This document shows positions 20,620 through 22,485 of a stretch of DNA of 64,000 nt, piece by piece (the first letter of the stretch is position 1; each line of letters opens with the position of its first letter). The stretch lies in the IMG/VR virus record IMGVR_UViG_3300031992_000044; one strand, given 5' to 3'. The position numbers and the translations under genes were made by a program. The notes beneath the pieces are model-generated. The model saw only the letters and a program-made list of their open reading frames with translations. It was not told the DNA's origin and searched no databases. The DNA comes from a virus.

Positions 20620-22485
20620 TTATTGTATAAGTTTTATGGATTTTTCTTTAAGTAGTGTATTGACATCTTTGTTATCTTTCTTTATCTTATAACCTTTTAT
20701 CTTTACACCTTTTTCATAAATTTCCATAATACTATACTCAGCATCGGCATACCTTCGTTCTGACTGACCGTTGCTATTTATATATCGTGGCTTAGACAAT
20801 GATGGAAGTGCTACTGTATATCCGGATGTAGACTTCTCATTATTATCTGCTCTTGTGTATACATATGCGTTTTGTGCATATGGACTGACTATATTATAGT
20901 CATGATTGACAAAATGTCCATCGTTTTCCCAACTTATATGAGAATGTCCACTGAAGAATATAACATTCTTATATTTGTTGTTGAGTTTATTTAAGAACCA
21001 GAATTCAATACCAGTTAAGGCGTTTGAACCTATACTATAAAGTTTTGATTCTTTTATATCTTTTTCTCCAGCTTTATGTATATCTGCATATTGCCATGCT
21101 CCTTGTTGAGGTATTCCTAAACTATTACCTGCTTTATTCGGCAAGAAATGATGAGTAAATACATAGATCTTCTTATCTGGATTATTTTCAATTATTTCTT
21201 TTAACCAAATAAGACTGTTTGGACTATAATACTGGTAATTATACTACATATCACCGTTACCATAATCGGTATCTTGTACGTATTCAACCATTCTCTTGAT
21301 ATATGGATCGTTTGATTTGGTATCGATAATTGTTCTTGCATGAATCATACGATCATGCCACTTATCATTGATAGGCCAAATATCATTACCATAATCTACA
21401 GAAAGGAATACAAAGATATCATCATCTTTCTTAAGCCAATAGTTAAGTTTAGAATAACCATTTCTTCCGTGACTACCACCGTCATTCCACATAATGAGAT
21501 TATCTTTTACCTCATTCCAGTGGCTATTTACGTAGTTGTTTGCACAACGGATAGCTTCATCTGATATACCTCCTTTATTTGCATCCCATATCGAACTTCC
21601 TGTATATCCTCCTTTTCTTGCATATAAATCAACATGGTCGTTATATGAGAAGAAGTTCATGTCAGCTTGACCAACAGGAGTAGATTTGCCTTTTTCTAAA
21701 TCAAATACTATGCGTCCTCTACCAGGTACAATACCATTGATACCTTGACCAGTAGGCCATAAATTTGCAATTCTCTGGTTTACATTGGCATTATATCCTG
21801 AAATACATTCGGAATTCTTTTTACCAGTTCTTACATCACCTTGTCTAGATTCAAATAGTCCATAGAAATCATGATTACCAAGTGGTGAGAACAACCTAAG
21901 ACCTGCTACTTGCCAATAAGGAACATCATACATTTCTTTTAATTCCTTATAATCAATATCACATACTGCTTCTGGATGTCTTTGATAAGCATTTGTAGCC
22001 GATTCTGAAATATCTCCACAACTCATTACACATTTTATGTTCTGATCTTTAACAAACAGATCCATACAACGTTTGAAGTCTGCTTCATCCCACCAATCAT
22101 CATTGTCTTTTGAGATATGAAGATCTGATATCAGACCTACAGAATATTTATAATTTCCAAGGTCTACATCTTCATCTCCTTTCTCATCATCTTTTATGAT
22201 TGTAACAGGACACCACAATTGAGCAATGTCGTTTGTCATTCCTAAATCAGGTCTTCCATTATCTCCTATGGAGAATATGAAATGTGTAGTATCGTCGTGA
22301 ATAATTGCATTATATGTATATTCTTTACTATTTTGCTAATCGTGTATCCTTGTATATCCGATTTTCTCTCGTCTTTCATGAATACATGAATAACATTCAG
22401 TAGCAAACTAGGCATGCAATGCAACTGTTTCTCCAACTCGACCTTTTATTTCTGGTCCAATTAATTTTATTTCTTCTTTGTTCAT
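20620..22485 (-). CDS. calcineurin-like metallophosphoesterase, 3 in-frame TAG codons
   Basis: Same-frame pieces joined by TAG at 22408-10, 22336-38 and 21244-46. Motifs DLH, CGDISE and GNHDF lie upstream of the last TAG; VFTHH and SGHSHISW lie downstream. Confidence 0.8.

Follow-up and report, generated by a model that had tools for sequence, protein, structure and literature searches.

Reassignment of a stop codon in crAss-like phages was reported to be mostly limited to late genes (Yutin et al. 2021, PMC7886860); in replication modules the alternative code was found to be used variably, and one recoded endonuclease lies within an early gene (Borges et al., bioRxiv 10.1101/2021.08.26.457843). 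The subject of the present analysis is a metallophosphoesterase (MPE) gene, positions 20620–22485 (minus strand), in a stretch of 64,000 nucleotides (nt) of the IMG/VR virus record IMGVR_UViG_3300031992_000044, hereafter the window. Under the standard code this gene is interrupted three times by TAG. It is very probably one gene in which UAG is read through as glutamine by a phage tRNA with the anticodon CUA, tRNA(CUA), to give a product of 621 amino acids (aa), and which lies in a two-gene accessory cassette of the replication arm.

The closest described systems are the code-15 crAss-like phages (Yutin et al. 2021, PMC7886860; Borges et al., bioRxiv 10.1101/2021.08.26.457843; Peters et al. 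2022, PMC9523058). They belong to the same order and carry in-frame TAGs in conserved genes together with a tRNA(CUA) of the tRNA-Gln type; there, likewise, a standard-code replication block stands beside a recoded structural block, and it was proposed that synthesis of the recoded products has to await the code switch. Unlike the late genes of code 15, the recoded pair of the window is an accessory cassette in the replication arm, on the opposite strand, and by annotation is neither structural nor lysis-related. The recoded endonuclease in an early gene (Borges et al.) is alike in being an isolated recoded open reading frame (ORF) within a standard-code early region, the stops of which were proposed to hold back the product until the late phase of infection; it differs in the reassignment (TGA to Trp), in the phage clade and in being a mobile endonuclease instead of an accessory enzyme cassette.

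By homology, and by synteny with cr273_1 (tmRNA, sigma factor, 469-aa gene), the window is identified as a Crassvirales (crAss-like) phage: its major capsid protein shares 83% identity with the one of cr272_1, also crAss-like, and DNA polymerase, TerL and capsid match PHROGs. The genes of positions 1–37,000 (minus) serve replication and regulation, and those that follow from about 37,000 (plus) are structural.

The MPE frame runs from ATG 22485–22483 to TAA 20622–20620 (minus strand; 621 sense codons and the stop) and contains no TAA or TGA and three TAGs. ORFs 21244..22239 and 20620..21144 (minus) are in this one frame; it is open back to ATG 22485, as claimed in the first-pass annotation, and the only interruptions were confirmed to be TAG 1 at 22408–22410 (codon 26), TAG 2 at 22336–22338 (codon 50) and TAG 3 at 21244–21246 (codon 414). 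In 5000 mononucleotide shuffles of the gene the frame contained a mean of 39 TAA + TGA (minimum 17) against none in the real gene, whose remaining five frames hold 23–67 such codons. The openness of the frame is far beyond chance, and the gene (1.9 kb, 35% GC) is free of frameshift. Upstream of the start no TAA or TGA is met up to 22587, a fourth TAG (22521–22519) and a further ATG (22566) being present; the start was placed at 22485 because the N-termini of homologues (M..IKLxGPEIKG) match there.

TAG 3 divides the MPE motifs in the manner first described: DxH, GD and GNHD are encoded before it, VFTHH and GHSH after it. The 174-aa ORF as listed starts with TTG 21144, which is 3' of the VFTHH motif; this motif sits within the 33-codon gap between TAG 3 and TTG 21144, and under the standard code the THH block would be untranslated, because the first start after TAG 3 comes downstream of it. 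The earlier statement that neither ORF is a complete enzyme agrees with homologues, selection and fold, and the downstream piece lacks even VFTHH.

A search of 5.8 billion proteins with the joined protein gave 240 homologues; the 120 of them that were listed are all single chains (about 540–900 aa) covering 77–100% of the joined sequence, and related phages with two separate genes at these points, the counter-evidence envisaged in the first-pass annotation, were not seen among them. Both early TAGs and the start codon lie inside an N-terminal domain common to homologues. Neither megablast with the region nor tblastn with the joined protein gave a match in INPHARED. Relative P0002 (locus L002; 69% identity) is intact under the standard code and its stop is TAG. 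The closest relative (locus L001, protein P0001), which comes from a different sample, has 95% nt identity and TAG at the same three codons; the database entry of P0001 shows Gln for the TAGs, and code 11 does not translate it. Compared with the window, L001 differs synonymously at 63 codons and non-synonymously at 18, with a synonymous divergence (dS) of 0.21; the ratio of non-synonymous to synonymous divergence (dN/dS) is 0.067 overall and 0.18, 0.00, 0.07 and 0.02 in the four TAG-delimited segments, and the 82 codons before Met83 are conserved (dN/dS 0.05). Judged by these ratios every TAG-delimited segment is under purifying selection and is therefore neither part of a pseudogene nor an untranslated spacer. 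On this comparative evidence the two ORFs are one TAG-interrupted MPE gene.

The use of TAG in the family was examined at 45 fetched loci. Most copies have no internal TAG; in 14 TAG-free relatives TAG is the stop of the MPE gene, immediately behind the conserved C-terminus. Four lineages have internal TAGs: window and L001, at the same three sites; L005/L022, at two sites of a different N-terminal module; L016/L037, at one site; and L039. Copies with internal TAGs stop with TAA or TGA (window MPE, TAA; its upstream neighbour, TGA). The MPE-family ORF of L039 comprises 2,647 codons, two family modules and 19 TAGs, one of them on the conserved Gln of a QYY motif.

Some further features of these loci were recorded. 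The giant ORF of L039 (7124–15067, plus) holds one complete copy of the phosphoesterase module and another that is partial and rearranged, and its C-terminal region weakly resembles a domain of the window neighbour; the contig is strongly TAG-recoded (coding density 0.78 under code 11 vs 0.98 under code 15), large TAG-rich ORFs flank the giant ORF, and PHROGs gave no annotation for any L039 ORF flanking or including 7124–15067. The gain in coding density under code 15 clearly separated just the window and L039 and was too crude for other loci. L005, the MPE gene of which has two in-frame TAGs, carries an array of 14 tRNA genes (L005 1044–21685), in which the MPE gene sits and one member of which, at L005 12570–12642, has the anticodon TCA (opal-suppressor type; ARAGORN label SeC); no CTA-anticodon tRNA was found in the fetched 21.8 kb of L005.

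The predicted protein consists of an immunoglobulin (Ig)-like N-terminal domain, a short acidic linker and an MPE portion with a large insertion. N-terminal beta-sandwich, Ig-like or carbohydrate-binding module (CBM)-like: residues ~1–97 (22195..22485, minus), all-beta in the AlphaFold2 (AF2) model with a predicted local distance difference test score (pLDDT) of ~90, matching Ig and CBM folds; in P0026, P0098 and P0104 alternative N-terminal modules take its place. MPE blocks I–III (21868..22125, minus; PF00149 match and conservation): D121xH123 (ISDLH), G157-D158-x-x-E161 (CGDISE), G203-N-H-D206. MPE blocks IV–V (20938..21153, minus; invariant columns, P0141 and fold alignments): H445-H446 (VFTHH, 21153–21148), G513-H-S-H516 (SGHSHISW, 20949–20938). 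The five blocks follow the order of the MPE superfamily (DxH, GDxx(D/E), GNH(D/E), H, GHxH) and are all invariant or at least 90% conserved among 88 homologues, Glu161 being invariant; about 235 residues are inserted between blocks III (GNHD) and IV (THH). In P0141, a relative with a shorter insert, PF00149 is matched over positions 2–190 of 191 (33 bits). P0141 aligns to both halves of the window protein (E 5e-38 and 1e-4); residues 345–604 of P0001 give E 5e-38.

The full-length AF2 model (88–89 homologues) is one compact chain with pLDDT 88.0 and a predicted template-modelling score (pTM) of 0.80. Since the full-length fold search of the PDB was dominated by Ig-fold matches to the N-terminus, a homologue without the Ig domain was also modelled (pLDDT 88.9, pTM 0.89). 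Foldseek vs the PDB: purple acid phosphatases, E 1.5e-5 to 1.4e-4, target-normalised template-modelling (TM) score 0.53–0.56, ~530 columns, both halves spanned; weaker N-terminal matches to LpxH, SbcD and Vps29. Foldseek vs viral models: a calcineurin-like phosphoesterase, E 4.6e-13. The MPE portion is predicted by these models to have the calcineurin-like metallophosphoesterase fold; as a member of that superfamily the product would have a dinuclear metal centre and hydrolyse phosphoesters. The purple acid phosphatases (PDB 1ute, 2bq8, 1qhw) are the best solved structural match and have the same five-block layout ending in xxH and GHxH; the window MPE differs in lacking the Tyr, a ligand of Fe(III), that defines these phosphatases, in carrying ~235 additional residues from block III to block IV and an Ig-like module, and in sharing just 8–9% identity with them. 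Strict membership of the purple acid phosphatases was rejected, block I being DLH and not DxG, and block II GDISE and not GDxxY. Two phage MPEs of BFVD, A0A8S5SWA5 (E 4.6e-13) and A0A1M4NET6 of Enterococcus phage Idefix (E 2.3e-4), are likewise large and multidomain, with a fold match of ~530 columns, the latter being annotated, by prediction, as 'virion protein with calcineurin-like phosphoesterase domain'; they differ in showing 8–14% identity, predicted annotations and no sequence-level relation in INPHARED or PHROGs. The homologues appear to form a large family of phage phosphoesterases with modular binding domains that was not characterised before.

The candidate amber suppressor tRNA(CUA) was found by ARAGORN at 39141..39215 (plus), where the structural arm begins. 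The annotated tRNA-Gln of crAss-like phage cr53_1 shows 81% identity with it and has the same CTCTAAC anticodon loop; its 5' end and D-arm are those of the window's own tRNA-Gln(UUG), so tRNA(CUA) probably derives from tRNA-Gln. Besides it, tRNA-Gln(UUG) at 12117–12188 (-) and tRNA-Gln(CUG) at 27110–27185 (-) are present in the replication arm; with tRNA(CUA), all three Gln-type codons are served. In the alignment of relatives TAG 2 corresponds to Gln in 12 (CAG in seven, CAA in five); the third TAG of the neighbour is aligned to Gln in P0127, P0128, P0134 and P0141. TAG 1, within the Ig-like domain, is TAG also in L001 and GAG in 13 relatives, among other codons; TAG 3, between blocks III and IV, is TAG also in L001, its column being variable (Pro, Leu, Ala, Lys; mostly CCN). 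UAG is most likely decoded as glutamine, as the alignments and the tRNA suggest. Code 15 in crAss-like phages is reported to have been shown by metaproteomics (PMC9523058).

Of the 7,752 codons of plus-arm genes, 57 are in-frame TAGs (7.35 per 1000). The split MPE gene had been called the strongest internal evidence for decoding of TAG; this was overstated, the terminase (10 TAGs) and the portal (14 TAGs) being at least as strong. The accompanying claim that recoding reaches beyond the plus arm was borne out by the MPE gene and its upstream neighbour, which has three TAGs, both on the minus strand. Almost all minus-arm TAGs in code-15 ORFs stand at gene ends or before likely starts, the exceptions being the two cassette genes and a candidate at 35766–36293; two short minus-arm ORFs (14523–14819 and 34174–34500) have a single earlier TAG each and are ambiguous. 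A Fisher test of the cassette vs the rest of the minus arm is partly circular, as the other gene models are bounded by the standard code; the survey of TAG positions just given describes the arm more fairly. The frame 35766–36293 (-) is a possible third recoded minus-arm gene (175 codons; TAGs at codons 56, 60, 66 and 173), with a weak SocA/Panacea-domain match (E 0.004, 18.5 bits, under the cut-off) that spans the TAG cluster. The DNA polymerase gene stops with TAG and an in-frame TAA directly after it (8131–8136, -); other replication-arm genes with a TAG stop have TAA or TGA 1–26 codons on (19459, 25265–25270, 10901–10950, 33338–33397). Such double stops may be back-ups that limit readthrough once the suppressor is active.

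Upstream neighbour, a modular putative binding protein: 416 codons, 22487..23737 (minus); TAGs 23662–23660, 23656–23654 and 22612–22610 (codons 26, 28 and 376); stop TGA 22489–22487, which ends one base before the MPE ATG. Its homologues run about 40 aa beyond the third TAG. The first 57 residues are about 90% identical to those of L001 (88–92%, depending on the BLAST run), the C-terminal domain just 29%; relatives have varied middle and C-terminal modules on Pro/Thr linkers. The C-terminal domain (~190 aa) was also found in proteins that have a dockerin-like repeat and a signal peptide of the lipoprotein type, and at the C-terminus of P0141, which is composed of BACON, MPE and that domain; in this fusion both cassette functions are therefore joined in one chain. 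The P0141 gene adjoins genes of BACON-repeat proteins and an Amidase_3 gene. Direct BLASTP of the neighbour vs the giant protein of L039 gave E 0.17 and 0.004 and was not used as evidence, the P0141 fusion being used.

The cassette is bounded upstream by a permuted transfer-messenger RNA (tmRNA)-like gene, 23771..24151 (minus; ARAGORN; Rfam RF04321, 49.4 bits, cut-off 47), and downstream by tRNA-Ile(UAU), 20407..20481 (minus; ARAGORN, Rfam). A terminator-like hairpin followed by a U-run (20584..20612, minus; -18.4 kcal/mol, z -3.3) lies 8 nt past the TAA stop of the MPE gene. In a scan for promoter and terminator consensus, promoter-like sites barely exceeded those of shuffles and this hairpin was not listed; the sigma-70 consensus used is unsuited to the probable Bacteroidota host. 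Phage cr273_1 is collinear on both flanks (homologue of 24619–25128, tmRNA, then homologue of 19884–20393, sigma factor, 131-aa and 469-aa genes); it has two tRNAs where the window has the cassette, which is absent. GC content at third codon positions (GC3): cassette 0.21, rest of the minus arm 0.40, structural arm 0.31. TAG per 1000 codons: cassette 5.79 vs plus arm 7.35; TAG share of Gln-type codons: cassette 15% vs structural arm 18%. From composition and synteny we conclude that the cassette is an inserted accessory module, which looks horizontally acquired.

Several features of the surrounding arm were noted in passing. An ECF (extracytoplasmic function)-type sigma factor is encoded at 18787–19356 (-), about 1.3 kb past the downstream end of the cassette (Sigma70_r2, E 7e-12; Sigma70_r4_2, E 3e-12; 62% identity with the cr273_1 'RNA polymerase sigma-W factor'), and is a candidate regulator of the timing of phage transcription. 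A 14-nt motif, GAGCCTT[TC]GAGCCA, occurs five times vs 0.39 expected (minus; exact at 24290–24303, 24439–24452, 24574–24587 and 14363–14376; with two mismatches at 9999–10012); three copies lie in a non-coding stretch of ~470 nt upstream of the tmRNA, and the copy at 9999–10012 overlaps the start codon of the DNA polymerase. The sequences around the copies show no conservation; the motif may serve the replication arm as a promoter or an operator. The tmRNA-like gene is permuted (two-piece), with the ARAGORN tag peptide GDYNIVDYTGLKEAA*; an identical tag was found in L001 (1942–2322), and homologous loci are annotated 'transfer-messenger RNA, SsrA' in crAss-like phages cr272_1, cr273_1, cr131_1 and cr10_1. 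Permuted tmRNAs were described for Alpha- and Betaproteobacteria and Cyanobacteria (PMC11915505). The phage tmRNA might relieve ribosome stalling that results from global amber suppression.

The proposed course of expression is as follows. The MPE mRNA, with three in-frame UAGs, would be read with Gln at these codons by tRNA(CUA), the product being the 621-aa protein with the Ig-like N-terminal domain and the calcineurin-fold MPE. Without suppression, translation would stop after 25 codons or give at best a 413-aa fragment with no more than blocks I–III of the five that bind metal; the sequence shows that an enzyme of full length, with potential activity, can arise only under UAG suppression. 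In the first-pass annotation the gene was placed on the early-gene strand and its expression called gated, hence late or conditional; of this, the dependence on a suppressor is borne out, the strand class and the timing being putative. The cassette would be made in the translational regime of the structural genes, once the suppressor is present; its late production is extrapolated from the published model and would hold by analogy.

A number of results weigh against the reading of one suppressed gene in an accessory cassette, or against parts of it. PF00149 gives no reportable match on the joined 621-aa protein, owing to the insertion of about 235 residues that separates GNHD from THH; a check proposed in the first-pass annotation, all five motifs of the joined protein in one PF00149 alignment, failed accordingly, only the 331-aa piece being matched (25.7 bits, cut-off 21.5; profile positions 3–109 of 191). 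That the domain is one was shown instead by P0141 and by the fold searches. A profile search of PDB sequences gave one spurious match (E 0.29), and PHROGs found nothing for the MPE and likewise for the neighbour, P0141 and P0109. tRNA(CUA) scores just 31.7 bits in Rfam (tRNA, cut-off 29) and is termed a candidate suppressor because its T-stem pairs poorly; the window is only part of the genome, and another suppressor may be encoded elsewhere. Sites 1 and 3 align with Glu (mostly GAG) and predominantly Pro, not Gln, for which reason the Gln identity is taken from site 2, the neighbour and L039. The adjacency of neighbour and MPE was seen in the window and L001 only; gene contexts of relatives differ, and the neighbourhood is no guide to function. 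The positions of TAG across 13 recoded genes show no 5' bias (Fisher combined p 0.15; Kolmogorov–Smirnov (KS) p 0.60; fit uniform) and give no support for a designed 'gate'.

It is quite possible, if somewhat short of probable, that the dependence on the suppressor is real and not regulatory: the TAGs would be neutral variants of Gln codons, either inherited with the cassette from a TAG-recoded phage or fixed by drift, as the gene is translated only with the suppressor present. Because the cassette looks horizontally acquired, this neutral origin is a serious rival to deliberate gating. The composition of the cassette is foreign-looking in GC3 and the cassette is absent from the syntenic cr273_1; its TAG density and Gln-codon share match those of the structural arm; the absence of 5' bias agrees, and the TAGs of the other recoded lineages (L005/L022, L016/L037, L039) stand at different, non-conserved positions. 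On the other hand, all three TAGs are kept in L001 at dS 0.21, which is weak evidence from two genomes only, and both cassette genes carry TAG at codon 26, which without suppressor aborts the product early; this fits gating, but the statistics do not require gating.

That UAG is read as another amino acid, e.g. Glu or pyrrolysine, is improbable. It would account for the prevalence of Glu at site 1 (GAG in 13 relatives) and of Pro at site 3, and the ARAGORN label for the CTA-anticodon tRNA is Pyl; set against this are the Gln aligned at site 2, at the third TAG of the neighbour and in the QYY motif of L039, the homology of the tRNA to the annotated tRNA-Gln(CUA) of cr53_1 and its similarity to tRNA-Gln(UUG) of the window, and the published proteomics of code 15 in crAss-like phages (PMC9523058); Pyl machinery was not seen.

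A decaying pseudogene with three nonsense mutations is very improbable. The frame is indeed broken three times under the standard code, and the MPE gene, an accessory one, is missing in the reference phages closest to the window; but TAG is the sole interruption, no TAA, TGA or frameshift having accumulated in the 1.9 kb, dN/dS is 0–0.18 in all segments, also after each TAG, the essential genes TerL and portal carry 10–14 TAGs each, and a tRNA(CUA) is present. The pseudogene was rejected because the selection pattern contradicts it. Least probable of all are two or more separate genes the products of which form a split enzyme: standard gene callers do give the 331-aa and 174-aa ORFs, but none of the homologues listed is split at the TAG points, TTG 21144 is downstream of the invariant H445-H446 and would leave 33 conserved codons untranslated, the 82 codons upstream of Met83 are conserved under purifying selection and the model is one compact chain, so that homology and selection reject it.

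For the single suppressed gene and its neighbour a function can be proposed only tentatively. Modular binding domains, Pro/Thr linkers, no signal peptides by eye (no predictor having been run), the BACON fusion and the Amidase_3 neighbour of P0141 would suggest, with low confidence, an activity outside DNA replication. The BACON proteins of crAssphage and gut phages (de Jonge et al. 2019, PMC6949934) are comparable in that P0141, a distant family member, carries BACON and both show modular N-terminal domains of the binding type and Pro/Thr linkers; the window MPE has an Ig-like module and not BACON, and glycan binding is putative for either. Both cassette proteins might act together on a phosphoester-containing surface or extracellular substrate, outside the replication machinery, and the MPE activity might be virion-associated or released at lysis, both at low confidence. 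A more far-reaching proposal, which we regard as doubtful, is that of a functional pair, a swappable binding-module protein and a purple-acid-phosphatase-like phosphoesterase, made only in the suppressor-positive late phase despite its place in the replication arm, with a timing set at translation, independently of the transcription unit; on the virion or freed at lysis, the pair would act on phosphorylated host-surface or gut glycans, and this adaptation to global amber suppression would extend to the adjoining tmRNA.

The MPE gene, with TAG as the stop in 14 relatives and internal TAG in the window, is a clean, internally controlled case of TAG as a sense codon. The locus also shows that recoding in crAss-like phages follows the gene and not the genome arm, since a recoded cassette can sit in a standard-code replication block; gene callers that switch the code region by region would therefore mis-annotate it. 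The locus is a well-documented instance of known phage recoding with a modest twist, a recoded accessory cassette in the standard-code arm, and with a previously uncharacterised enzyme family, and it leaves the present picture of stop-codon recoding in phages unchanged.

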